The notes under the pieces are model-generated. The model did no database searches, had not been told where the DNA came from, and worked only from the letters and a program-made list of their open reading frames with translations. 64,000 nucleotides of DNA from an uncultured Gammaproteobacteria bacterium (lineage in GTDB: Bacteria; Patescibacteriota; Microgenomatia; Levybacterales; GWA1-39-11). Where the stretch lies: the NCBI GenBank assembly GCA_964641355.1, contig CAZXND010000001.1, forward strand, positions 11,869-75,868, given 5' to 3'. Of this stretch, positions 8,769-49,952 are shown piece after piece. The position numbers and the translations under genes were made by a program. The stretch's first letter is position 1; every line of letters begins with the position of its first letter.

Positions 8769-10109
8769 TTAGGACACACTCTTTTCTTTATTATCAAATA
8801 CAAGAATTAAACTTCTTGTTACCATAATCGCCGAAAACATTGATACTAAGATACCAATCGCAAGTGTAAATGCAAAACCACGGATTATACCACTACCAAA
8901 TTCAAAAAGTATAAAACAAGTTATAAGACTTGAAATATTAGAATCTCTAATAGAAGACCAAGCGCGAGCAAAGCCGAGTTTAACAACTATACTTTGTGGT
9001 TTTCCTATCCTTCTCTCTTCTTTCATTCTTTCAAAAATTAGTATATTAGCATCGACCGCCATTCCAATCGATAAAATAAATCCTGCAAATCCAGCTAAAG
9101 TTAGAGTCACTGGAATCAATTGGAAAATAAAGAGAACAGTTAATATATAAATAATAAGAGCAAAACAAGCAAGAATTCCTTCTTTTTTATAAAGAAATAT
9201 CATAAAAATGCATATAGAAATAAACCCTAAAATACCCCCCACGATACTTCTTTTTAAAGAATTGATCCCAAGAGAGGGTCCTATTGTACTTTGTGCAATT
9301 ATCTCAAGAGGTGCAGGCAATGCTCCGGCATTGAGCTGTATTTTTAAATTATTTGCGGACGGGACAGTAAATCCACCACTTATTACAGCATTTCCATTAA
9401 GAATTGGCTCATTAACTCTTGGAGCTTCGACTATCTCTTGATCTAAAACAATTACAATTGGCTTTCCTACGTTTTTTTTGGTAATACTAGCAAATTTGTT
9501 TGCCCCTTCTGGTGTAAAATTAAGCTGAACTTGAGGTTTACCTGTGTTCGAATCAAATGAGACGCTTGAACTTGTTAGATCTTTACCGCTAAGAGAGGTC
9601 ATTCTTGGTGAGGATCCTAAGATTAGAGATAAATTATTTATAAGAAACGACGAAGAAGTAGCGGGTTTTTGATCGGTCCCTTCCCAAAAACTAAGTTGAG
9701 CAGTTTTTCCAATTAGATTTTGCGCCTCAACCACATTTGTTGTCCCTGGAAGCTCAACAATGACTCTATATTCATCGCCCACTTTCAAGTTTTGAATTGT
9801 AGGTTCAGTAACACCAAAAAAATTAACTCTTCTATCAATAACATTTCTTACAGACTCGAATGCGCTTTCTCTATTTTCTTTTTTTATATTTTTAAGATCA
9901 ACCTTATAAGTAAGGCGCGACCCTCCTTGAAGATCTAATCCCAGTTTGAATTCAAAGTTTTTCTTTATTTTTACTAAACCAATATTTATATCAATTTTCT
10001 TTGAAGGAAGAGAAAATTGACCTACTCTAAAATCAGAAGGTAAATCTAAAAAAAGAAAAATTAATGAGAATATAAAAACAATCAGAAGAAAAAAACGAGG
10101 GTTTTTCAT
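8769..10109 (-). CDS. secD: Protein translocase subunit SecD
   Basis: GLDLQGGSRLTYKVDL motif; periplasmic domain plus 6 TM. Confidence 0.9.
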   Translation of the reverse strand: MKNPRFFLLIVFIFSLIFLFLDLPSDFRVGQFSLPSKKIDINIGLVKIKKNFEFKLGLDLQGGSRLTYKVDLKNIKKENRESAFESVRNVIDRRVNFFGVTEPTIQNLKVGDEYRVIVELPGTTNVVEAQNLIGKTAQLSFWEGTDQKPATSSSFLINNLSLILGSSPRMTSLSGKDLTSSSVSFDSNTGKPQVQLNFTPEGANKFASITKKNVGKPIVIVLDQEIVEAPRVNEPILNGNAVISGGFTVPSANNLKIQLNAGALPAPLEIIAQSTIGPSLGINSLKRSIVGGILGFISICIFMIFLYKKEGILACFALIIYILTVLFIFQLIPVTLTLAGFAGFILSIGMAVDANILIFERMKEERRIGKPQSIVVKLGFARAWSSIRDSNISSLITCFILFEFGSGIIRGFAFTLAIGILVSMFSAIMVTRSLILVFDNKEKSVS

Positions 10110-10114
10110 TAAGA

Positions 10115-10690
10115 CTAAGAAATCATTGACTCCTCATCTCCTATCAACATTATTCTTGAACCATTAATAATCCCCATAATAAAAGGGTCGCGCCGCTTTT
10201 TCCTAAAGTTAAATTCCTCCTCAGACATGACCGTATAATTTATCTCCTGCTTGCGCCTTCCCTCCTCTTCTCTAACAATTAAAGACAACTCCGGAACTAC
10301 TACTGTTCCAACAACTAATAAATCTATCTCTTCAGGATTATCTTTAATTCCTTTACCAAAGTTGCCTGAAATCATTGCGTATTTAACTTTTCCAAGCTTA
10401 ACTCTATTTTTTACAATATCGCCACCCAAACCAGTCATTTTTGCATTTACTCTAATGAGATCACTATAAAACGGGTAGGTTTTGTCTAGATAATAATAGA
10501 CTCTATTTGCTCGAGGTTCTCGCTTAAGTAGGCCTTTTTTTTCAAGAAGGAGAAGCTCTCGTCTTACTGCATTAATTTCTTCATTTACTCTCCTAACGAC
10601 CTCTCTCACATGGAACATATCTTCCTTGTTTTCCAAAAACAAAGATAGCAACTTTACCCTAGTTTTACTTGTCACTAAATCTCTTAACAT
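10115..10690 (-). CDS. Winged-helix (ArsR/archaeal-type) transcriptional regulator with uncharacterised C-terminal domain
   Basis: N-terminal wHTH-like segment (VREVVRRVNEEINAVRRELLLLEKKGLL). Confidence 0.45.
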   Translation of the reverse strand: MLRDLVTSKTRVKLLSLFLENKEDMFHVREVVRRVNEEINAVRRELLLLEKKGLLKREPRANRVYYYLDKTYPFYSDLIRVNAKMTGLGGDIVKNRVKLGKVKYAMISGNFGKGIKDNPEEIDLLVVGTVVVPELSLIVREEEGRRKQEINYTVMSEEEFNFRKKRRDPFIMGIINGSRIMLIGDEESMIS

Positions 10691-10740
10691 AGTAAGAGGG
10701 CAGTTTTACAAAACGAAAGAAGCACTAATAATACTCTTTA

Positions 10741-11904
10741 TCATTTAACGGTAACCGTAGCGCCTATTGGCAGAACGCTAAACCAAATCTTTCCCTTGTT
10801 TAATGAAACTTCTTTACCACTCGTGTCTTTTAAGTATAAATGAGCTTCACGACTTTTTTTTGACCATGTTGCATTAATCTTTTTTCCATCTTGGAAGATA
10901 ATAGCATTTCCCACTCCTTTTGTCCCATACAAATTGTGTAGATTATTTTCATATCCATCGTTTGCACTACTTTCTCTCATGAATAAAATTACTACATTTT
11001 TAGCTGATATTTGTTTACCCGTATCTTTGTCTTTATGTGGAATACCACCATTACTTCTTAAGTATGTGTTGGTTGTGCTATCGTAAGTCCATTTTACACC
11101 GTACTCTTTATATCCATCCCAAAAATCATAAGACACAGTACTTGCAGAAACAGCACTAGCTGGACTATCAGCTTTGAAAATATATGGAGTGAATCCAATG
11201 TTCCATTTCGTTCCATCCTTATCAGTAGCTGATAAACCTCTGCTTTTTGCTACATCCCACAGCTTTTGAGTTGTACTATACATTGTGTGCTCTGTTGCAA
11301 CAGGGTGTCCTAATCTCTCATAATCTCTCCAGAACGTCGGAAATCCGACTGAAAATTGATTGATATCGTTATACCCTTGCCATCCATAATCTTCAATTTG
11401 ACCTAAGGCATTTGCTGGACCTGGGGTATTCGCACCTCCAACATGTGTATAAAGAGGTGAATCACCATATTCAGATATAAAATCTAGAAAATAAGTTCTT
11501 GCAGATCTAACGGGACCAACAATACCAGCATCCTGACAGTAAAAAATAGAAAGGAATCTTGTGATACCACCCTCTGCAACCGCTTCGTAAACAATATCGG
11601 CGGAATCAAGTCCTGACTGAGGTCTTGATTCTTGATGATTCTCTATCATAATACCCAGTGGTCTATGCTTTTCCCACCAATCTCTCTGCTGCTTTGAATA
11701 CATCGCCCCATTCAAAGGACAAGATTCTGTTTTGGGAAGTTTTTGGTCAAATGTTACTTTTCCTTCTTTTGTAACTTGAGTAATAGGAACTACTGAAGTC
11801 TTCCTCCCTACTGTAGTTGGGAAGATGCTTGAAAAGAGGAAGTATGAAAAGGCAGAGGTTGTCAGATATAAAACTACTGCAATAATAATTGTCTTTAAAT
11901 TCAT
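10741..11904 (-). CDS. Secreted DUF3048 (YerB-like) domain protein
   Basis: Signal/TM N-terminus; MIENHQESRPQSGL...YEAVAEGGITRF...GPVRSAR pattern recalled for DUF3048. Confidence 0.55.
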   Translation of the reverse strand: MNLKTIIIAVVLYLTTSAFSYFLFSSIFPTTVGRKTSVVPITQVTKEGKVTFDQKLPKTESCPLNGAMYSKQQRDWWEKHRPLGIMIENHQESRPQSGLDSADIVYEAVAEGGITRFLSIFYCQDAGIVGPVRSARTYFLDFISEYGDSPLYTHVGGANTPGPANALGQIEDYGWQGYNDINQFSVGFPTFWRDYERLGHPVATEHTMYSTTQKLWDVAKSRGLSATDKDGTKWNIGFTPYIFKADSPASAVSASTVSYDFWDGYKEYGVKWTYDSTTNTYLRSNGGIPHKDKDTGKQISAKNVVILFMRESSANDGYENNLHNLYGTKGVGNAIIFQDGKKINATWSKKSREAHLYLKDTSGKEVSLNKGKIWFSVLPIGATVTVK

Positions 11905-11928
11905 ATGATTATGGAATTATATAATATT

Positions 11929-12405
11929 TTATCGTTTAGAATCTAGAAGAAATGTGCTTTCTTTTAATGCTTTTTCTTCTTCACTCGAAAGTTCATATTC
12001 AGCTCCTTTACCTTTCAACACCTTCTTAGCATACCATCTAGTCCCTGTCCTTGTGTGAAGGCTCGAAATAACCACACCTGTATTATTTGCATCAAGGAGT
12101 GAAAGAACAAAGCTTTGATCTCCCCCAGTGTCTTTAAAAGGATTAAATCTAAAAAGGCCCAATTTTTGTATGTGAAATTCTCCCTCTTTTGCAATTTTTG
12201 CTACATCCATTTTTAACTTCTCTATTTCTTGATAATTACTAGATTCCCTTCTAAAGATTTCATCAAGAGACTTGGTTAATAATTCTTTTTTACCATTTTT
12301 CGTAAGTCTTAAATAGTAAAAATAAAGCCTAAAAAAGAAGATTGATATTATTACTGCCCAAACAAAATTAATAACAGCAAAAACTAAAAGGGGGGAAAGA
12401 AACAT
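11929..12405 (-). CDS. Membrane-anchored hypothetical protein (possibly DUF4446-like)
   Basis: N-terminal TM; conserved-looking FNPFKDTGGDQSF segment. Confidence 0.4.
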   Translation of the reverse strand: MFLSPLLVFAVINFVWAVIISIFFFRLYFYYLRLTKNGKKELLTKSLDEIFRRESSNYQEIEKLKMDVAKIAKEGEFHIQKLGLFRFNPFKDTGGDQSFVLSLLDANNTGVVISSLHTRTGTRWYAKKVLKGKGAEYELSSEEEKALKESTFLLDSKR

Positions 12406-12427
12406 AGATCTAAATAATTTTAGCCTC

Positions 12428-40125: not shown

Positions 40126-40215
40126 GAAGTATATTTTGGATCAATGGTTTAATACAAAGTTAAACTTTAATTAAACAAGTTTATTTTATCATAATTTGAG
40201 CCTAAACTGAACTTT

Positions 40216-40244
40216 AAAAAACCCCTCACCAAAAGGTGAGGGGT
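40216..40244 (-). terminator. Intrinsic terminator/attenuator in the secA leader
   Basis: Minus strand reads CCCCTCACC-TTTT-GGTGAGGGG followed by TTTTTT. Confidence 0.75.
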
Positions 40245-40308
40245 TGAATACCTATTGATCAATTGGCATTCCGATTATCGGAAACCAATCCTAAAAAGAA
40301 ATCGAGAT

Positions 40309-40353
40309 TTATCTCTTCTTTCTTTTTGCTGCTTTCTTTCTTTTCTTTGCCAT
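40309..40353 (-). CDS. Tiny poly-basic upstream ORF (MAKKRKKAAKRKKR, 14 aa) in the secA leader
   Basis: AAAGGAGGTGA RBS 8 nt upstream of the ATG; TAA stop; TTGACA-like hexamer upstream. Confidence 0.4.
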   Translation of the reverse strand: MAKKRKKAAKRKKR

Positions 40354-40547
40354 GGACAGGTTCACCTCCTTTTTTCTTTTTCAAGAAATGAGATAATATT
40401 ATCGTGAATAAATTTAAAAAGAATGTCAAGAAATTTCATCAGCTTCAAAATTGTTAAATTGTTTTGTCATAACAACAATATTTATAACGTGAAAAGTTTA
40501 CTTTTTTATTACTAATACACTACAAAATGAGGCTAATCTAAAATTAA

Positions 40548-42438: not shown

Positions 42439-43953
42439 TTATACCTCTTCAAATCTTTTAATTACAAAATCTCTACTTAGTGAAAGAATTAACCAAGCAG
42501 CTTTTGGACCATGGTCTTTTCCAATAAGACTCGTATAAATAGCTGAATATGCATCTTTGGATAGTAAATCAAGTTCTTTTGCCCAAGTGTACATATTCGT
42601 TTGAAAATCTTCAGCATTCCAATCCTTATTTAATTCATTTGCAATTCTTCTGAGAAATTTTTTTTGCTGTTCACTCAAATTCGAAACATTCTCCGATAGC
42701 TCCTGTTGCACCATAAATTTGTCCTTTTCAGAAGCATATTTTTCCAACCATATTTTTGCATATTTGCCCCATTCTTCAGCACCAACTTTGTTAATTTCCT
42801 TTTCCATATTAGGCATTTGCACCCATTGTGAAATTGTTGAAAATCTAACATTAGGAGGAATCTTGATCTCACCCACTTGAGAAAGCTCGAATTCTCTTGC
42901 AAAATCGTCCCCTTTTTTCGAAAAATAAGCCTCTGCGGCTTTCTGATACTCATCAAAAAGTTTAGGAATAGTTTCTCCTTCGGGATCAAAATTTATAGCC
43001 TGGTTTATTTTAGTTTTCACCATAAGAAAACGTAGAATTTCAGGAGGAAGAATATCAAGCATTTCGCTCGCTGAGGAGCCTCTTCCTTTGGATGAAGACA
43101 TTTTCTTACCTCCAACCAAAAAAAACTCGTAAGCAACCGGTTGTGGTACTGGATAACTTATCACTCTTTCACAAATCAAACTCGCTAAATCGTGTGATCC
43201 TCCCTTACTCATGTGGTCCTTACCAGCCCCCTCGACGGTAACACCAATAACCTTCCACTTAGCCGGCCATTCAACTTTCCAAGGTAACTTTCCTGAAATG
43301 TTACCATCAGAGCTAAAGGGAGATATTCTTCCCTCATGGCCACAACCCTTCACCCAATTTAAACCGTCAATTTTACAAATATATGAAACTTTTTCGCCAT
43401 CCCAAGCATTCACTTTTGTAGTTGAAACCTTGTCACAATTTTCACAATAAACCTGAAACGGAAACCAATCAGAAGGAATTTCTTTTTTATATAACTCCGA
43501 ATAGATTTTTCTTATCTCACTTACTTTATCAAGACATTCACGGATCACATCGTTCATTCTTCCACTTCCATAAAGATCTGTTGACCAAATAATCTCAGGC
43601 TCACAGTCTAGTGCATTAAAAACTTTTTTGAAATCAAGAGCAAAATATTCAGCATAATTTTTAAACCCAGGTTGTGGAGATGGAACTTTATAAAGAGGCA
43701 CTCCTAGATATTTATCAAACTCTTTTGGAAGATAAACTGGTAAATCATCCATGGGATCATGATCGTCAAAAACATAGGTATACTTAGCATTTATTCCAGC
43801 ATTTTTTAGCGATTTATATATCAGATCGTGAATAACCACTCCGCGTAGAGAACCAACATGAATCCTTCCTGAAGGAGTTTTCATGTCGTCCACCCATTCT
43901 AAGGGGAGATTTCTTTCCTTTAATTTTTGAGCAACTTGGTCAGACCAATACAT
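42439..43953 (-). CDS. lysK: Class I lysyl-tRNA synthetase (archaeal type)
   Basis: TPSGRIHVGSLRG (HIGH region), FDDHDPMDDLP and KMSSSKG (KMSKS) motifs; about 500 aa. Confidence 0.8.
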   Translation of the reverse strand: MYWSDQVAQKLKERNLPLEWVDDMKTPSGRIHVGSLRGVVIHDLIYKSLKNAGINAKYTYVFDDHDPMDDLPVYLPKEFDKYLGVPLYKVPSPQPGFKNYAEYFALDFKKVFNALDCEPEIIWSTDLYGSGRMNDVIRECLDKVSEIRKIYSELYKKEIPSDWFPFQVYCENCDKVSTTKVNAWDGEKVSYICKIDGLNWVKGCGHEGRISPFSSDGNISGKLPWKVEWPAKWKVIGVTVEGAGKDHMSKGGSHDLASLICERVISYPVPQPVAYEFFLVGGKKMSSSKGRGSSASEMLDILPPEILRFLMVKTKINQAINFDPEGETIPKLFDEYQKAAEAYFSKKGDDFAREFELSQVGEIKIPPNVRFSTISQWVQMPNMEKEINKVGAEEWGKYAKIWLEKYASEKDKFMVQQELSENVSNLSEQQKKFLRRIANELNKDWNAEDFQTNMYTWAKELDLLSKDAYSAIYTSLIGKDHGPKAAWLILSLSRDFVIKRFEEV

Positions 43954-43958
43954 AACCT

Positions 43959-45068
43959 TTACTCATTATACAATCGAATTATGTCTTTATATACCTGCTC
44001 AGTTTTTTCTAATGAATTAAGATCAAGCCACTCCTCTTTTGTGTGACCTCCTCCACCAATGGGTCCCAAACTTATCACTGGAATATTTAAACGATTAGCA
44101 AAAATATTTTCGTCTGCAACAGAAGAAGCATAAGTTGGTTTTACTTTATTTTTATCAAAAATTTCTTTTTCCAAAATTTTTAGAAATTTATTGTCCCTAT
44201 TTATCTCATAAGATTCACCGTATGGCGTATCTCTTTCTACAGGACGGCAATTTACTTCAATATTATTTTCTTTTGCGGTTGATAGAATTTTTTCTTTTAC
44301 AGATTCACTTGTTATTCCCGGTGTTGTTAAAACTGAAAAAGTAATAACACACTTATCAGGCGTTGAAAAAGATGTAGTGTCAGAATGAATAGACTGTAGT
44401 ACAATTTTTACACTATCTAAAAATTCATGCTTTGGGAAATTTATACTTGATAAGATTTTGATAAACCTTGCAGCCTCATTAATAGCATTTACTCCTTTTT
44501 CTTCTTCTGCAGCATGTGCTTTTTTTCCAGTTACCGTAGCTTGGAAAAGTATTCTTCCTTTTCTTCCATAGCAAACATTAAAAGGCTGATTTAAGTCTTT
44601 TATTTGGCCGCTTTCTCCAGAAATAAGGAAATTAATATTGTTTAAAATCCCTGAGTCGACTAAGTCGTGCGCCCCTCGAGATATCTGTTCCTCATCAACA
44701 CCAAAAATAAGTTGTAAGGGATATTTATTTTCTACAGCAAACTCTGCGGCCTTAAGAATAGCAGCAATTGCACCTTTCATATCTTCAACTCCCAATCCGT
44801 ATGCCTTTTTTCCATCTATTTCTAGTTTTAAAGGGTCGCGCTCACTTTTCTCATCCATATGTACAGTATCCATGTGACCATAAAAGGATAGGTAACTAGA
44901 GGATTTACCAAAACGAGCAACTATATTACTCCTATTTCCTTGAGTTAATACCTTCTCAACTTTAAAACCAATTGAAATTAAATGTTCAGAAATAAATCTA
45001 GAAATTTTTTCTTCTGAAGATGTTGAATCGATGTCGATCAATTTTTTTATTAATTCTATTGTTTTCAT
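43959..45068 (-). CDS. M20-family metallopeptidase/deacylase (ArgE/DapE-like)
   Basis: YGHMDTVH, GVEDMKGAIAA, GGGHTKEE motifs. Confidence 0.8.
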   Translation of the reverse strand: MKTIELIKKLIDIDSTSSEEKISRFISEHLISIGFKVEKVLTQGNRSNIVARFGKSSSYLSFYGHMDTVHMDEKSERDPLKLEIDGKKAYGLGVEDMKGAIAAILKAAEFAVENKYPLQLIFGVDEEQISRGAHDLVDSGILNNINFLISGESGQIKDLNQPFNVCYGRKGRILFQATVTGKKAHAAEEEKGVNAINEAARFIKILSSINFPKHEFLDSVKIVLQSIHSDTTSFSTPDKCVITFSVLTTPGITSESVKEKILSTAKENNIEVNCRPVERDTPYGESYEINRDNKFLKILEKEIFDKNKVKPTYASSVADENIFANRLNIPVISLGPIGGGGHTKEEWLDLNSLEKTEQVYKDIIRLYNE

Positions 45069-46477
45069 TATGGGCGAAACCTAACCTTTCTTTTTTCCAT
45101 TTCTTTTACTATCTCGTTGCATCGCTCTTCGCTCTTTCCCATAATAAGCACCTTAAAGTTAGGAGATGGAATGATGTTTTTTCTCGTAACTAACGTTCTA
45201 AATGCTTGAGGAATAACTAAGCCTTGTTCTATGTTACCATATGCCAAATCTTCTCCTATAACTTCTACGTAATCCGAAATTGTTTGTATTGGTTTATCAG
45301 TATATACGTTTGTATTTATCCAATTCTCCGCTCCTAATTTTGTAGCGACAATATATGGAGGAGTATTTGCTGTAGGGCGAGAGTTGAGTTCTACCACGTA
45401 CACAGACTCTTTCCCTTGATCATCCCTTATAAGAAACCAGTCTACGCCTTGTACACCGAAATACTCATTAGATTCTGTACTATAATTTGCAACTTTCTGA
45501 ACTTGATCATCAACTAAAAGTTTTGAGCCGTTTTTTGGCCGAAAGGGGCGATTCCCAAGATATTCACCTTCGTCAGTAGTAATTTGATCGAAATAACCAA
45601 TGATTTCTGGCATTCCCGATCTGCTCGTAATAAACTGAGTACTACCATTTATAACAACTTCTCCCAAGTTTCTCGCATCACTCTCTATAACTATTCCAAA
45701 ACCGAGAGGTGAAAATGAGTCCCTTGGCCAAAGTTCTTCAATTTTTCTACCAAAAGATCCTTTAAATAGGGCTCTTTCTATCGAACTTCGAATCTCCGAT
45801 ATCCCACTTAAAACTTCATCTGTAGTAACAAAAGGAATACGCTTTACTAAATCCCCCCCCGATCCAGTAGGAAATTTAAGCCAGACTCCATATTCTGTGC
45901 TTGAAAACTGTTGAACTAGTGTTTCCACATCTTCTAGAGATCGCATAGTGGCTCCTGGAAGCATTTGAAATCCAAACCTAACTGCAGACTCTCTTAACTC
46001 TTCTTTATTATTAGTTATCGCACTATCCCTTCGATTAATCGTTTCTATGTTTAGTGCTCTCTGTTGTCTACTTACTCCATCGTTAGAAAAAGTAGGTACT
46101 AAATACATGGGGTTGTCTGAATTTTCAATTTTCACCCTTCCCGATAAGGATTCGAGAGGATCTGTTGCGGGATATCCATAAGTAACCTCCCCGTTTAGAT
46201 CAGGTTCAACTTCAATTATGTGCGAATCTTGAGGAATTAAACCATGTCGAGAATAATACTCATATAATCCTTCTATGAGGTTGTTGCAAATAACCGTTTC
46301 ACCGCTGCTTATTGCTGGTACCGCAGTGTTTCTTAGATACCAATCTCCATCGGGAAATGGTAAAGCTAACTTATGGTCAGGGTTAACATAATTTAAAGTC
46401 ACGAATGGCTCGCCCTCCAAATTGTTACTTCTTAGGGCAGTGTGACCTAATGAAACTCCACTTTCAACTTTTGTCAT
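45068..46477 (-). CDS. ATP-grasp domain enzyme (carboxylate-amine ligase-like), 469 aa
   Basis: VWLKFPTGSGGDLVKR and VVELNSRP ATP-grasp-like motifs; composition differs from flanking genes. Confidence 0.5.
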   Translation of the reverse strand: MTKVESGVSLGHTALRSNNLEGEPFVTLNYVNPDHKLALPFPDGDWYLRNTAVPAISSGETVICNNLIEGLYEYYSRHGLIPQDSHIIEVEPDLNGEVTYGYPATDPLESLSGRVKIENSDNPMYLVPTFSNDGVSRQQRALNIETINRRDSAITNNKEELRESAVRFGFQMLPGATMRSLEDVETLVQQFSSTEYGVWLKFPTGSGGDLVKRIPFVTTDEVLSGISEIRSSIERALFKGSFGRKIEELWPRDSFSPLGFGIVIESDARNLGEVVINGSTQFITSRSGMPEIIGYFDQITTDEGEYLGNRPFRPKNGSKLLVDDQVQKVANYSTESNEYFGVQGVDWFLIRDDQGKESVYVVELNSRPTANTPPYIVATKLGAENWINTNVYTDKPIQTISDYVEVIGEDLAYGNIEQGLVIPQAFRTLVTRKNIIPSPNFKVLIMGKSEERCNEIVKEMEKRKVRFRP

Positions 46478-46624
46478 AAAAATAAAAAAACCCCTATTTT
46501 GGGGCTATATTTTGACACCAAAAAAGCCCTCTAATTAAAGAGTGTGCTTCTTGGATTTTACAGAATTAAAATTCAATATCATTTTTCAGATATTAGCATG
46601 TATATTATACCTTGTCAAATTAAG

Positions 46625-48133
46625 TTATCTATCTTTTACGGGAGGGAAAAGTATTATATCGCGGATGTGAGGCGTATTAGTAAGAATCATGGCCATTCTA
46701 TCAATGGATATCCCTATTCCAGCCATTGGGGGAAATCCATATTCCATAGCTGTTAAAAAGTCTTCGTCTACTTCCATTGCCTCTTTATCTCCTTCAAGTT
46801 TTCTTTGTCTTTGATCTTCAAACCTAGCTCGTTGATCTCTAGGATCATTCAATTCTGAATAGCAATTCATGACCTCGAATCCACCAATATAACATTCGAA
46901 TCTTTCAACTAAATTAGGATTATTTCTGTGCCTTTTTGTTAGAGGACTTGTTTCATGAGGATAGTCCATTACAAAAGTTGGCTGAGTAAATTTACCATCG
47001 TAATACTCTTCAAAAAGAGCAAGTAAAAGATCTCCTCTTTGCTGGCTATGTTTTGGATTTATATTTAGACCATCGGCTATTTTGTATAAATCCTTATCGA
47101 TTACTGTTTCTGGATCAAAACCATAAGCCTCTTTTAGACCTTCATAGATTGTCACTCTCTTCCAAGGAGCTTTAAAATCAATAACGTGTCCATTATATTC
47201 AACTTGCGTTGTTCCATGTATGTCTTGTGCTACTCTCTCAAAGATTGTTTCTGCCATCTCAAGCATTTCTAAATAATCTGAGTAAGGTTTATAAAGTTCT
47301 ACAGCGGTAAATTCAGGATTATGTGTCCTATCCATTCCTTCATTTCTAAAGTTTCTGGAAAATTCAAATACCGGTCCCATATTCCCACAAACAAGGCGTT
47401 TTAGATAAAGCTCATTTGCTAATCTTAAATACATGTCTTGATCTAAGGCATTAAAATGGGTAATAAATGGTTTTGCGTTTGCGCCTCCGTAAGTATTATC
47501 AAGAACTGGAGTCTCCACTTCTAAAAATCCGTACCCCAAGAACTCATCTCTCATTATTTGAGTCATTCTAGCTCTTGTTCTAAATCTTTCACGAGCGTTT
47601 GGATTTGTCATAAGTTCAAGATATCTTTGCCTCCTTGCAAGCTCGGGATCTTCAACTCCTCCTCTTCTAATTAAAGGTGGCGGAAGCAAAGCTTTAGCAA
47701 GCATTGTCAATTCTTGTGCTTTTATTGTTATTTCACCGGTTTTAGTTCTAAAAACCTCTCCTTGAGCATTCACAAAATCACCGGTATCGTAGTTATCGGC
47801 TATTAGAATAAATTTCTCGTCTTCTGGCCCGTTTTTCTTAAGATAAACCTGAACTTTTCCCGTAGTATCTTCTACATCGTAAAAAATAGATTTTCCCATC
47901 TCTCTTCGACCTACGATTCGACCAACCACACTTACCCTTCTTTCTTCTAGTGAATCAAACTCCGATGCTATTGCTCCGGCTGTGTGAGTTATCAAAGGAG
48001 GTTCAACGGGATATGCATTTATTCCAGCAGCTTCGAGATTTTGAAGGTGGTTAAGTCTTGAATTTCTACCAGTATTTCTCTCTTGTTGTATGGGTGAATC
48101 TTGTGGCTGAGGCGGCCCTTCTTTCCTTATCAT
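46625..48133 (-). CDS. lysS: Class II lysyl-tRNA synthetase (full length, with N-terminal anticodon-binding OB domain)
   Basis: RLNHLQNLEAAGINAYP, VSVVGRIVGRREMGK, FRNEGMDRTHNPEFTAVE (motif 2); about 500 aa. Confidence 0.9.
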   Translation of the reverse strand: MIRKEGPPQPQDSPIQQERNTGRNSRLNHLQNLEAAGINAYPVEPPLITHTAGAIASEFDSLEERRVSVVGRIVGRREMGKSIFYDVEDTTGKVQVYLKKNGPEDEKFILIADNYDTGDFVNAQGEVFRTKTGEITIKAQELTMLAKALLPPPLIRRGGVEDPELARRQRYLELMTNPNARERFRTRARMTQIMRDEFLGYGFLEVETPVLDNTYGGANAKPFITHFNALDQDMYLRLANELYLKRLVCGNMGPVFEFSRNFRNEGMDRTHNPEFTAVELYKPYSDYLEMLEMAETIFERVAQDIHGTTQVEYNGHVIDFKAPWKRVTIYEGLKEAYGFDPETVIDKDLYKIADGLNINPKHSQQRGDLLLALFEEYYDGKFTQPTFVMDYPHETSPLTKRHRNNPNLVERFECYIGGFEVMNCYSELNDPRDQRARFEDQRQRKLEGDKEAMEVDEDFLTAMEYGFPPMAGIGISIDRMAMILTNTPHIRDIILFPPVKDR

Positions 48134-48135
48134 TT

Positions 48136-48759
48136 TTACTTGAAAGCAACAAGTACCAATTCACCATCGAGTACTCTTTTTGTATATACGTTGCCCTCTG
48201 TAGAATCTAAGTCTTCCGGGTTATAAAAAGAATGTTGACCATTAATCACTACGTTTCCTTCAGGTGTAGCTTGTAGATTAAACCTCTGTTGAGTCCCTAA
48301 AACTACAACAGAAGAATCCGGTGGCAATACTTTTCCAAAATCCATATTTAAAGCTTCAAGAAGACTTGCTGGTCTAAGGTTTTCCGGAAGGTCTTCTGCA
48401 AACTCTTCTGGTGTTTTTCTTCCAGTTGCCTCAACAACTTTTACCCAAGAAGGGGATGGCAGCCAATAAGGAGAGTTCTCAGGAAATCTATAAACACCAC
48501 TACCAACATCTACTCCCTGAAGTTTTATCTGATCAGAGATAGGAACCAATGGATCAACGATAACAAGACTCGCTCCATCTGATAAGTGCGGGGATCTTAT
48601 TGCTTCTGAAATCGCAGGGCCGAATCGATCTATATAATCACCAAGGGACATACCTAATGAAGAATGATACCCAATAAGAGTTTTTCTATCTATTTGCGCT
48701 TCGCAGAGTGCGCGCACTTGTATTGCTGAGTCAGTTGGTGTTAAAGATTCTCCAGTCAT
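48136..48759 (-). CDS. Hypothetical soluble protein translationally coupled to lysS
   Basis: ORF stop lies 2 nt before the lysS start; no recognisable domain; GC-richer composition. Confidence 0.4.
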   Translation of the reverse strand: MTGESLTPTDSAIQVRALCEAQIDRKTLIGYHSSLGMSLGDYIDRFGPAISEAIRSPHLSDGASLVIVDPLVPISDQIKLQGVDVGSGVYRFPENSPYWLPSPSWVKVVEATGRKTPEEFAEDLPENLRPASLLEALNMDFGKVLPPDSSVVVLGTQQRFNLQATPEGNVVINGQHSFYNPEDLDSTEGNVYTKRVLDGELVLVAFK

Positions 48760-48844
48760 AAGTCATATATAGCTACTTAAATTAAGTAAAATACTCGTTT
48801 TGCTGGGATTTTAGCACTCGAAACATATGTTGTCAAATAATAGT

Positions 48845-49822
48845 TTACTCTCTAACTACTGTTGTTCCTCTGAATGTTGGATTAAAAGTATTTTTGACCC
48901 TCAAGACAATTTCAGTACCAAATAAGGGCTCGAGCGTTCTGTAGTGCAATACCTTAGCACCGTTTTTAGCCATTCTATCAGCTTCAATATAGGTTAATCT
49001 GTCAATAATATGCGCATTAGAATTATATCGTGGATCAGAAGTAAATACACCATCAACATCTGTCCATATCCATACTTCTTTTGCCCCCAACAGTCTTCCA
49101 ATAAATGATGCTGAAAAATCAGATCCTCCCCTGCCTAAAGTTGTAACTCTTCCGTCCTGAGTCGATCCTAAAAATCCAGTTATTACTGGCGTGACTCCTT
49201 TTCTCAATAGTGGATTAACTATTTGCTCAGCTTTTTCTTCACTCAATAGAACATCTGGTTTAGCTTCTCCAAATAAGTTGTCAGTCTTTATTATTTCCGA
49301 TGATGAAACAACTTCTGACCTAATTCCCTCCTGATTAAGCTTAGCGCTTATAAGTCTTACACTCATCCTTTCACCATACGAAAGAATCCTGTCCTTTTTT
49401 TCTGCATCTGATAATCCAATGGAATTAATATCTCTTCTTAAACCAATGAATAGTTCTCTTAACTCGTTGACAAGAGACGTTCTTATTTGTAAGGAAAGTT
49501 TCAATTGGCTGGCCGCAGTTAAATGAATATCAAATATAGTCCTTAACTCTCTGTCTTTTCTAGAAATATCCCCTATATCGGCGTCACAAATTGCTACTAA
49601 ACGGTTTGTAATACCTGACATTGCTGAAGCAACAACTACTACAGCTTGCCCATCTTTGACATGAGATTTTACAATTTGACTAACTCTTTCTATTTGGGAA
49701 CCTCCTCCTACTGATGTCCCACCAAATTTCATCACATAAATGCTTCTATTTTTTTCTACCTCATTTTTTCGTAAACCTTCTAAACAATTGTGCCCGTTCT
49801 CAATTTTTCCCATTTTTGCCAA
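48845..49822 (-). CDS. Aspartokinase catalytic core lacking C-terminal ACT domains (true start probably at the internal MKFGGTSV)
   Basis: VMKFGGTSVGG and TTLGRGGSDFSA amino-acid-kinase motifs; only about 295-325 aa. Confidence 0.7.
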   Translation of the reverse strand: MAKMGKIENGHNCLEGLRKNEVEKNRSIYVMKFGGTSVGGGSQIERVSQIVKSHVKDGQAVVVVASAMSGITNRLVAICDADIGDISRKDRELRTIFDIHLTAASQLKLSLQIRTSLVNELRELFIGLRRDINSIGLSDAEKKDRILSYGERMSVRLISAKLNQEGIRSEVVSSSEIIKTDNLFGEAKPDVLLSEEKAEQIVNPLLRKGVTPVITGFLGSTQDGRVTTLGRGGSDFSASFIGRLLGAKEVWIWTDVDGVFTSDPRYNSNAHIIDRLTYIEADRMAKNGAKVLHYRTLEPLFGTEIVLRVKNTFNPTFRGTTVVRE

Positions 49823-49823
49823 T

Positions 49824-49844
49824 AAAAAACCCCTCCTTGAGGGG
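49824..49844 (-). terminator. Intrinsic terminator (second of a tandem pair downstream of greA)
   Basis: Minus strand reads CCCCTCAAGGAGGGG hairpin followed by TTTTTT. Confidence 0.7.
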
Positions 49845-49860
49845 CTTCTCTAAGTTTTTT

Positions 49861-49891
49861 TAACAAAGAATCAAACCCCTTGATGAAGGGT
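49861..49891 (-). terminator. Intrinsic terminator of greA
   Basis: Minus strand reads CCCCTTCATCAAGGGG hairpin followed by TTTGATTCTTTGTT. Confidence 0.55.
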
Positions 49892-49952
49892 TGTCTTTGT
49901 CTTTGATTCAAAACGATTTTCTTTGTTCATATTGCTTATAATAACCCATCCC

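Follow-up and report, generated by a model that had tools for sequence, protein, structure and literature searches.

The stretch of DNA analysed here, 64,000 nucleotides long and referred to below as the window, comes from a Patescibacteriota genome of the order Levybacterales (assembly GCA_964641355.1, contig CAZXND010000001.1, positions 11,869 to 75,868 of the forward strand). On its minus strand it carries a gene for a 207-aa protein, here called X, which stands directly ahead of lysS2, the gene for a class II lysyl-tRNA synthetase (LysRS2). The pair is flanked by an aspartokinase gene on its upstream side, and by genes for a 469-aa ATP-grasp-like protein, an M20 deacylase and a class I LysRS on its downstream side (Table 1). 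X represents a previously unnoticed protein family, and our subject is what this family does for the synthetase to which its genes are joined. Loci of related genomes are designated by L numbers.

X matches nothing in Pfam, NCBIfam or the PDB sequences, and no PADLOC or PHROG model at E <= 0.1. Its highest Kyte-Doolittle mean over 19 residues is 1.04 and it is thus without a transmembrane segment, so that the original prediction, which had seen neither a membrane segment nor a recognizable motif, was right on both points. A word-indexed protein search with X returned the identical protein only, which is present on seven contigs (the six that were read are nucleotide-identical to the window), and a profile search of the same index returned 6 proteins. 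The family was exposed only by an exhaustive HMMER search of 1.84 billion cluster representatives, which recovered 25 homologues (E 7e-30 to 1e-3), all of them stand-alone proteins of 185–230 aa that align over their whole length. A 2254-aa repeat protein among the matches (P0054) was left out as an artefact of summed repeat scores. None of the 25 homologues has a match in Pfam or NCBIfam, and the family profile found nothing in PDB. Because there are 25 homologues and their gene context is retained, the open reading frame (ORF) is more than a chance one; X is a real, conserved gene. Neither of the two outcomes that had been named as fatal to the original prediction, a spurious ORF lacking any conserved homologue or membership in a common housekeeping family, applies.

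The 25-homologue alignment shows the common motifs LVEPRIPFxxQ, PY..W, LRPATPxEGINAD and LGxPRI. Only V68, Q77, P101 and E135 are invariant, and the polar residues E69, R71, Q77, R129, E135, N138, R183 and D193 are conserved in most members. X from the window departs from the family consensus by E69D, R71L, Y102S and R183D, among others, and so has lost both of the near-invariant arginines R71 and R183. No lysine is invariant in the family, K26 being kept in 76% of the members. Sequence comparison ruled out that X is related to LysRS2 or to the 469-aa protein. One further record (L018, CAYOOO010000005.1) carries an X that is 100% identical over residues 1–212 to that of the Daviesbacteria contig L012, and its phmmer scores for X, LysRS2 and M20 equal those of L012; its title, 'uncultured Gammaproteobacteria', is probably a wrong bin label.

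With the 25-sequence alignment, AlphaFold2 predicts that X begins with a helical segment and continues as an alpha/beta domain (predicted local distance difference test, pLDDT, 86.9; predicted template modelling score, pTM, 0.83); the single-sequence model is poor (pLDDT 42). A Foldseek search of the predicted model against PDB and BFVD gave no neighbour at E <= 1e-3, and no enzyme, editing-domain, ACT, EF-P or RNA-binding fold emerged from the fold searches. A possible likeness to the C-type lectin-like superfamily, whose domain spans ~110–130 aa and mostly carries disulfides or a loop for ligand binding, is at most one of topology. The structure search proposed with the original prediction was thus carried out, and no fold offered a functional lead. 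LysW-type carrier proteins are zinc-ribbon proteins of ~54 aa with an acidic C-terminal tail ending in Glu; X, with 207 aa, one Cys and the C-terminus LVLVAFK, is not of this type.

Gene context was read in 11 distinct members of the family (the window, L012, L015, L016, L017, L019, L022, L028, L029, L030, and L031, of which L012 and L019 are two Daviesbacteria genomes), and in all 11 the next gene on the same strand after X encodes a class II LysRS. Nine of them have a gap of −4 to +3 nt between the end of X and the beginning of the LysRS gene; the gap is +10 nt in L019 and +57 nt in L031, where the LysRS gene has its own AAGGAGG. Co-occurrence with lysS across genomes, which had been put forward as a check, is therefore strongly borne out, and with junctions that almost always overlap or leave 1–3 nt. 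In the window, the X stop codon (48138–48136) ends 2 nt ahead of the lysS2 ATG (48133–48131), as had been described, and no Shine-Dalgarno sequence lies upstream of the lysS2 start; this layout suggests termination-reinitiation coupling.

Within the same genome pairs, X proteins are 23–44% identical (mean 31%) and their partner LysRS 48–70% (mean 55%), so that X diverges faster than the enzyme it is coupled to, and the other neighbours of X-lysS2 change wholly between genomes. Given that X is only 23–44% identical and all other neighbours have been replaced, the pairing has been kept by selection rather than by recent common descent. No dedicated tRNA gene lies near X-lysS2. L020, L021, and L024–L027 were rejected as X loci, as they are chance motif matches that the family hidden Markov model (HMM) did not confirm; the same search gave two new true loci.

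Table 1. Coordinates of X, its partner and the surrounding features in the window.
Feature	Coordinates	Strand	Description
X	48136..48759	-	ORF from ATG to TAA; soluble acidic protein, isoelectric point 4.6, 3.4% Lys; divergent member of an unannotated ~200-aa family
Spacer between X stop and lysS2 start	48134..48135	-	2 nt
LysRS2	46625..48133	-	canonical class II LysRS of the X-coupled clade; 4.6% Lys, 8.0% Arg; active-site residues conserved
Sigma-70-like promoter	48808..48836	-	TTGACA-17-TAAAAT with extended TG; 11/12 positions match; in the 85-nt gap 5' of X
Aspartate kinase	48845..49822	-	catalytic domain only (profile positions 3-303 of 468), without ACT domains; Lys-poor
Intrinsic-terminator-like hairpin GAGAAGCCCCTCAAGGAGGGGTTTTTT	49824..49850	-	ends ~10 nt ahead of the aspartokinase ATG; conserved in alignment
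Aspartokinase leader ORF MNKENRFESKTKTTLHQGV (then stop)	49871..49930	-	rich in Lys/Thr codons
ATP-grasp leader ORF MILNFNSVKSKKHTL (then stop)	46535..46582	-	rich in Lys codons
Terminator-like hairpin AGCCCCAAAATAGGGGTT with T-run	46479..46506	-	after lysS2, directly 5' of the ATP-grasp start
469-aa ATP-grasp-like protein	45068..46477	-	Lys-poor; weak ATP-grasp signature; unannotated family
M20 (ArgE/DapE-type) deacylase	43959..45068	-	start overlaps the stop of the ATP-grasp gene
Class I LysRS	42439..43953	-	second LysRS of this genome; Lys-rich, 10.3% Lys

LysRS2 scores well above the cut-offs of two LysRS models (NF001756, 589 bits against 468; TIGR00499, 522 bits against 428), reaches 420–426 bits with LysRS of solved structure, E. 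coli LysU among them, and carries both PF01336 (OB anticodon-binding) and PF00152 (class II core). With the EpmA model it scores 215 bits, under the cut-off of 287. The X-coupled synthetases are 48–70% identical to one another, and 35–47% identical to two uncoupled class II LysRS of related genomes, E. coli LysU and a Thermus-type LysRS; judged by sequence, they are a distinct clade. All 17 LysU lysine/ATP-site positions that were checked are kept in the eight full-length X-coupled enzymes, allowing for F426Y and one N271S, including, in LysU numbering, G216, E240, R262, E264, H270, E278, Y280, E414, E421, N424, F/Y426, E428, and R480. The list is what we take to be the lysine/ATP site in the LysU structures, with its numbering checked against motif contexts. 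Since these sites and the anticodon-binding domain are kept, the X-coupled LysRS should be genuine tRNA(Lys)-charging enzymes and not PoxA-like protein ligases. The same features bear on the roles first proposed for X, those of a cofactor, an acceptor substrate or a regulator of the synthetase: a specific functional link between the two proteins is well supported by the conserved gene context, but the acceptor-substrate role is made less likely by the full anticodon-binding domain and catalytic residues of LysRS2 and by the lack of an invariant lysine in X.

LysRS2 is not the only LysRS of its genome, the class I and class II genes lying 2.7 kb apart in the window. A second LysRS was seen in three genomes, wherever the flank was long enough: it is of class I in the window and L015 and of class II in L031, where it occupies the same syntenic slot ahead of Ham1-SerRS-SecA.

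The block around X also stands out by composition. When the 59 window ORFs that encode 120 aa or more are compared, X ranks first in GC (0.407) and last in lysine content, and X, the 469-aa protein and LysRS2 are the three poorest in lysine (3.4, 4.3, and 4.6%, respectively; z −2.0 to −2.5). The aspartokinase has 6.2% Lys, against 9.1 ± 2.3% (mean ± standard deviation) for the other 55 ORFs and 10.3% for the class I LysRS, and the depletion over the four-gene block has a binomial P of 6e-10. GC at third codon positions (GC3) is ordinary in X, the 469-aa protein and LysRS2 (z +0.1 to +1.2); over the four genes it is 0.245–0.279 (X 0.245) compared with a background of 0.241 ± 0.031, and it is codon positions 1 and 2 that hold their surplus GC. 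LysRS2 and the 469-aa protein contain background amounts of the remaining residues favoured by AT (N, I, F, and Y; z −0.1 to −0.35), and therefore the shift is specific to lysine. Lysine depletion at normal GC3 recurs in L007, L010, L012, L015, and L029. Recent horizontal transfer from a GC-rich donor was ruled out, as GC3 matches the host in every genome. Thus, what had been described as a GC-richer, Lys-poor island does have this composition, but it is a Lys-depleted block with native GC3 and not a foreign GC-rich insert. The cleanest control for lysine sparing is L031, in which lysine and arginine make up 4.9% and 8.0%, respectively, of the X-coupled class II LysRS, but 8.2% and 4.8% of the other class II LysRS, at near-equal GC3 (0.29 vs. 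0.30). It should be borne in mind that AsxRS and the CCA-adding enzyme are also low in lysine among the window ORFs. It has been documented and modelled that proteins which have to be made in starvation for an amino acid use that amino acid sparingly (Fasani and Savageau; PMC4209129).

The genes on either side of X-lysS2 bring lysine into the picture in another way. Translation of the aspartokinase probably begins at the ATG at 49813, which gives a protein of 322 aa. All five aspartokinases seen (window, L015, L017, L029, and L031) are short and lack ACT domains; the gene immediately precedes that of X in three of these genomes (window, L029, and L031), adjoins lysS2 in L015, and is 5 kb off in L017, and none occurs within ±8 kb in L012 or L019. 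There is no terminator between the aspartokinase gene and X in the window. In all five genomes examined, the aspartokinase gene is preceded by a leader with Lys codons, a hairpin and a terminator that ends 5–15 nt before the start, and these leaders, which encode the peptides MNKENRFESKTKTTLHQGV (window), MNISFETKTKKTTLR (L015), MSAQAVKEIKKTTMKTLHWG (L017), MNLELKTKKTKTLQ (L029), and MKLTLIVKKTKTTP (L031), align at the nucleotide level. In L031, the aspartokinase gene (8878–9942, plus strand) has been called with a start too far upstream, its first ~20 codons overlying the attenuator terminator; the protein likely begins at MSHVEDF.

Two terminator-like hairpins lie between lysS2 and the ATP-grasp-like gene (46479–46582 region), and Lys-codon leaders with terminators precede the ATP-grasp gene in five of six divergent genomes. 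The peptides are MILNFNSVKSKKHTL in the window, MKNLHLGNKSKKQTLY in L031, MRHQKSIQKLKKQAS in L029, MNFVNTFAKKAKKPLS in L007, and MCMQKQPEGVKSKSKKTVHGAYFAVA in L010, the last four with the lysine motifs KSKK, KLKK, KKAKK, and KSKSKK, respectively. The leaders have the architecture of classical leader-peptide attenuators, in which Lys and Thr codons would be read for the aspartokinase and Lys codons alone for ATP-grasp/M20. The evidence for the leaders is their conservation across genomes; a genome-wide scan for leaders with terminators missed even the known ones and so provides no valid background rate. We know of no lysine/threonine leader-peptide attenuator described for lysC-type genes. No T-box, lysine riboswitch or other Rfam family was found in the window between 40000 and 53000 at E <= 1, and neither a T-box nor a lysine riboswitch was found in 12 related loci at the Rfam gathering thresholds. 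Directly 5' of X, promoter-like boxes were read by eye in L012, L015, L017, L028, L029, and L031.

Two other features, the first of them only possibly regulatory, were seen. A mini-ORF with a strong Shine-Dalgarno sequence, encoding MAKKRKKAAKRKKR and then a stop (40309–40353, minus strand), lies in the 422-nt gap between SerRS and secA (40126–40547) and has hairpins and a strong terminator (fold z = −4.3) behind it, and L031 has MPAKKKAKKKKK, also followed by a stop, at the syntenic spot ahead of secA. The mini-ORF may encode a very small basic protein, or it may be a leader that controls secA by lysine sensing or arrest. In L010, an S-adenosylmethionine (SAM) riboswitch above the Rfam gathering threshold (12304–12427, minus strand) lies directly 5' of a gene for a hexapeptide-repeat protein (11830–12285, minus strand).

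The 469-aa protein has only weak Pfam and NCBIfam matches and 46 homologues; the family consists of Lys-poor proteins of ~470 aa and has no Pfam domain. Its gene is followed by the M20 deacylase gene and then a LysRS gene of either class in the window and in three of the four other loci read (L007, L010, and L031); in L009, the exception, it occurs with a GGACT-domain gene and no LysRS nearby. L029, in which the downstream side is cut by the contig end, was not counted. By this context, ATP-grasp/M20 is a candidate lysine-specific supply or salvage pair. In L007, a Levybacteria genome, the class I LysRS that directly follows ATP-grasp/M20 is fused to a B3_4 domain (9528–11798, plus strand; 756 aa). 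In L010, a protein of 196 aa that contains only one lysine (0.5% Lys; 11233–11823, plus strand) is encoded just 3' of an uncoupled Lys-poor class II LysRS and may be an analogous LysRS partner, with no homology to X; BLASTP and hhalign ruled out such homology for this protein as well as for unknown neighbours of 133 aa in L007 and 385 aa in L010.

Taken together, we hypothesize that X is a dedicated partner of a lysine-sparing second LysRS, most likely as a non-catalytic accessory or regulatory subunit, and we give this reading a probability of roughly 0.45. A dedicated partner is suggested because X is co-translated with the synthetase, co-occurs strictly with one LysRS clade and shares its lysine depletion, and a non-catalytic one because X diverges fast, has few invariant residues, has lost near-invariant arginines in the window and shows no enzyme-like fold; in particular, the fast divergence and scarcity of invariant residues hint at a binding partner rather than an enzyme. 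Since X-lysS2 is placed between a Lys/Thr-attenuated aspartokinase and a Lys-attenuated ATP-grasp/M20/LysRS operon and is itself depleted in lysine, the pair would belong to a lysine-limitation regulon. In this model, X and LysRS2 would be translated from one bicistronic message, with ribosomes that end X re-initiating on lysS2 across the 2-nt spacer that lacks a Shine-Dalgarno sequence, so that the two proteins would be made together and in a fixed ratio. Purged of lysine, both might still be translatable when Lys-tRNA(Lys) is scarce. The ACT-less aspartokinase behind its Lys/Thr-codon leader and terminator would form the upstream arm of the regulon, and the ATP-grasp/M20/LysRS operon behind its Lys-codon leader and terminator the downstream arm. 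An X-LysRS2 complex would then keep tRNA(Lys) charged in lysine shortage, and the Lys-rich LysRS would serve normal growth. X might stabilize or activate LysRS2, tune its affinity for lysine or tRNA, or gate it.

Several observations weigh against this reading. That X and LysRS2 form a physical complex is something we infer, and so is the induction of X-lysS2 by starvation, as X has its own sigma-70-like promoter and lacks a Lys leader. When RNAfold was applied to the leaders as if a ribosome had halted on the final Lys codon, a clear antiterminator appeared only in those of L029, and the attenuation mechanism therefore rests on conservation and not on thermodynamics. E. coli LysU and a Thermus-type LysRS have similar Lys/Arg percentages, with Lys at ~4–5%, and the lysine depletion could in part be inherited composition. 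The second LysRS is visible in only three genomes, the other contigs being too short to tell. Finally, E69, R71, Q77, R129, E135, R183, and D193 of X, conserved in most members, could form a catalytic or ligand-binding site.

The last point leads to the alternative that survives best, although we consider it unlikely: X may be an enzyme whose substrate is lysine, a precursor of lysine or aminoacyl-tRNA. It could be a new kind of trans-editing factor, clearing the near-cognate ornithine, homoserine or diaminopimelate mis-activated by LysRS2 in lysine scarcity, or it could catalyse a last step and pass lysine on to the synthetase. Besides these polar residues, together with N138, the neighbourhood favours such a role, as it includes aspartokinase, M20, ATP-grasp, GNAT-like proteins, a diaminopimelate (DAP)-epimerase-like protein and homoserine dehydrogenase. 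It also counts in favour that, to our knowledge, class II LysRS have no editing domain. However, X resembles no known enzyme or editing-domain fold, and in particular shows no sequence or structural homology to the known trans-editing families YbaK/ProX, AlaX and DTD; only four positions of this fast-diverging family are invariant, and R71 and R183 are replaced in the window. Moreover, LysRS2 is the sole invariant partner, and the metabolic neighbours vary among genomes.

A bolder version of the partnership, which we regard as distinctly improbable, would give the second LysRS a role beyond charging and make X-LysRS2 the lysine-sensing hub of the regulon, for instance by docking on the ACT-less aspartokinase in the way HisZ docks on short HisG, or by proofreading Lys-tRNA when near-cognate intermediates build up. 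If it held, X would be the first dedicated non-homologous subunit of a bacterial aminoacyl-tRNA synthetase (aaRS), and with a new fold. Bacterial aaRS are generally thought to act without dedicated accessory proteins, and their duplicates are usually put down to antibiotic resistance or stress.

X might instead be a mere conserved neighbour of lysS2, with a role that is unrelated or only structural and does not depend functionally on the synthetase. X has a promoter of its own, and gene order can last by inheritance in one lineage. What makes this explanation quite improbable is that the adjacency has outlasted the divergence of X to 23–30% identity and a full turnover of the other neighbours, that the stop/start overlap is itself conserved, and that the lysine depletion of X matches that of LysRS2 in every genome.

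It is very improbable that X, alone or with LysRS2, gives a lysine-sensing module to the ACT-less aspartokinase in the manner of HisZ and HisG. HisZ sets a precedent for an aaRS paralogue that regulates biosynthesis (PMC9437257), and all five aspartokinases are short and ACT-less, three of them encoded directly ahead of X. However, L012 and L019 have no aspartokinase within ±8 kb, X has neither a Pfam ACT match nor an ACT fold that would make it a regulatory (beta) subunit of aspartokinase, LysRS2 keeps all its catalytic residues, unlike HisZ, and the aspartokinase already has a leader-peptide control element. The simpler idea that X is the split-off ACT part of the truncated aspartokinase was rejected, since X lacks an ACT signature or fold and is tightly coupled to lysS2, not to the aspartokinase.

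That X is an acceptor substrate lysylated by LysRS2, as EF-P is by PoxA/EpmA (PMC9437257), seems scarcely credible: as this idea would have it, X is acidic and is translated together with an enzyme of the LysRS family, but LysRS2 has the anticodon-binding OB domain and lies above the LysRS equivalog cut-offs and under that of EpmA (215 vs. 287 bits), and X has no EF-P match in Pfam, no other similarity to EF-P and no invariant lysine.

Duplicated aaRS beside ATP-grasp, GNAT and M20 genes resemble some antibiotic gene clusters, and IleRS2 and mupirocin offer a precedent for self-resistance (PMC9437257), but a cluster that makes a lysine antimetabolite or LysRS inhibitor, with LysRS2 as the self-resistance copy and X as an immunity or helper protein, is just as far-fetched, because the lysine depletion and Lys-codon leaders point to lysine supply, the accessory genes vary while X-LysRS2 is constant, the genomes are very small and PADLOC gave no match.

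Returning to X as a partner of LysRS2, several known systems share some of its features. E. coli has a constitutive class II LysRS, LysS, and a stress-inducible one, LysU (PMC9437257). As in that case, two LysRS would coexist in one cell with one of them for particular conditions, and LysRS2 scores ~420 bits with LysU. Unlike in LysS/LysU, the second enzyme here belongs to a clade of its own in which X comes first in every case, and its companion LysRS may be of class I. For LysU, neither a dedicated partner protein nor a depletion in lysine relative to LysS is known to us. In Bacillus cereus, a class I LysRS (lysK, T-box regulated) occurs with a class II LysRS (PMC2916919). Coexistence of the two classes in one bacterium is thus shared with the window, and in B. 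cereus one copy is under tRNA-charging control, whereas the window has no T-box or lysine riboswitch and Lys-codon leaders on the neighbouring operons appear to exert control. We know of no X-like gene in B. cereus. X, LysRS2, the aspartokinase and the ATP-grasp protein are poor in lysine in the way that biosynthetic enzymes are poor in their cognate amino acid (PMC4209129). Unlike in those pathways, the proteins concerned here are a synthetase paralogue and its partner, and the Lys-rich isoenzyme of the same genome provides an internal control.

As for how X may work, MbtH-like proteins, which accompany the adenylation domains of nonribosomal peptide synthetases (NRPS), and Arc1p and AIMP2, which accompany eukaryotic aaRS, are small non-catalytic proteins that modulate activity or solubility. 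X is likewise co-encoded with an adenylate-forming enzyme, but has no sequence or fold relationship to any of them. MbtH-like proteins have a PF03621 domain of ~70 aa with conserved Trp residues; X has no Pfam match, and its size and predicted fold differ. We know of no accessory subunit of a bacterial LysRS. PoxA/EpmA-EF-P-EpmB likewise pairs a LysRS-family enzyme with a specific protein partner encoded with it, but PoxA lacks an anticodon-binding domain and modifies a protein, whereas LysRS2 is a complete tRNA synthetase. The leaders resemble the thr, his, and trp attenuators, in which a short ORF of regulatory codons, hairpins and an intrinsic terminator precede biosynthetic genes; they differ in using Lys or Lys/Thr codons, in occurring in Candidate Phyla Radiation (CPR) bacteria, in flanking rather than preceding X-lysS2, and in that the antiterminator is putative. 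In the library that was searched, no paper mentions Patescibacteria together with lysyl-tRNA synthetase. What is new with respect to the known dual-LysRS systems is the obligatory partner, the lysine depletion of the synthetase, and the leader peptides in place of RNA switches; X is a new protein family in a novel form of a known theme, that of the condition-specific second aaRS.

A family tied to one LysRS clade across genomes in which X itself is only ~25–30% identical provides a contextual handle on the function of an orphan family in CPR bacteria, which are hard to culture. The lysine leader attenuators and the unannotated ATP-grasp/M20 pair are probably part of lysine supply in these reduced genomes. 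Starvation poses a 'catch-22', as tRNA(Lys) has to be charged when the charging enzyme itself needs lysine to be made, and a LysRS stripped of lysine, with a Lys-rich LysRS encoded a few kb away, would be a testable answer to it.

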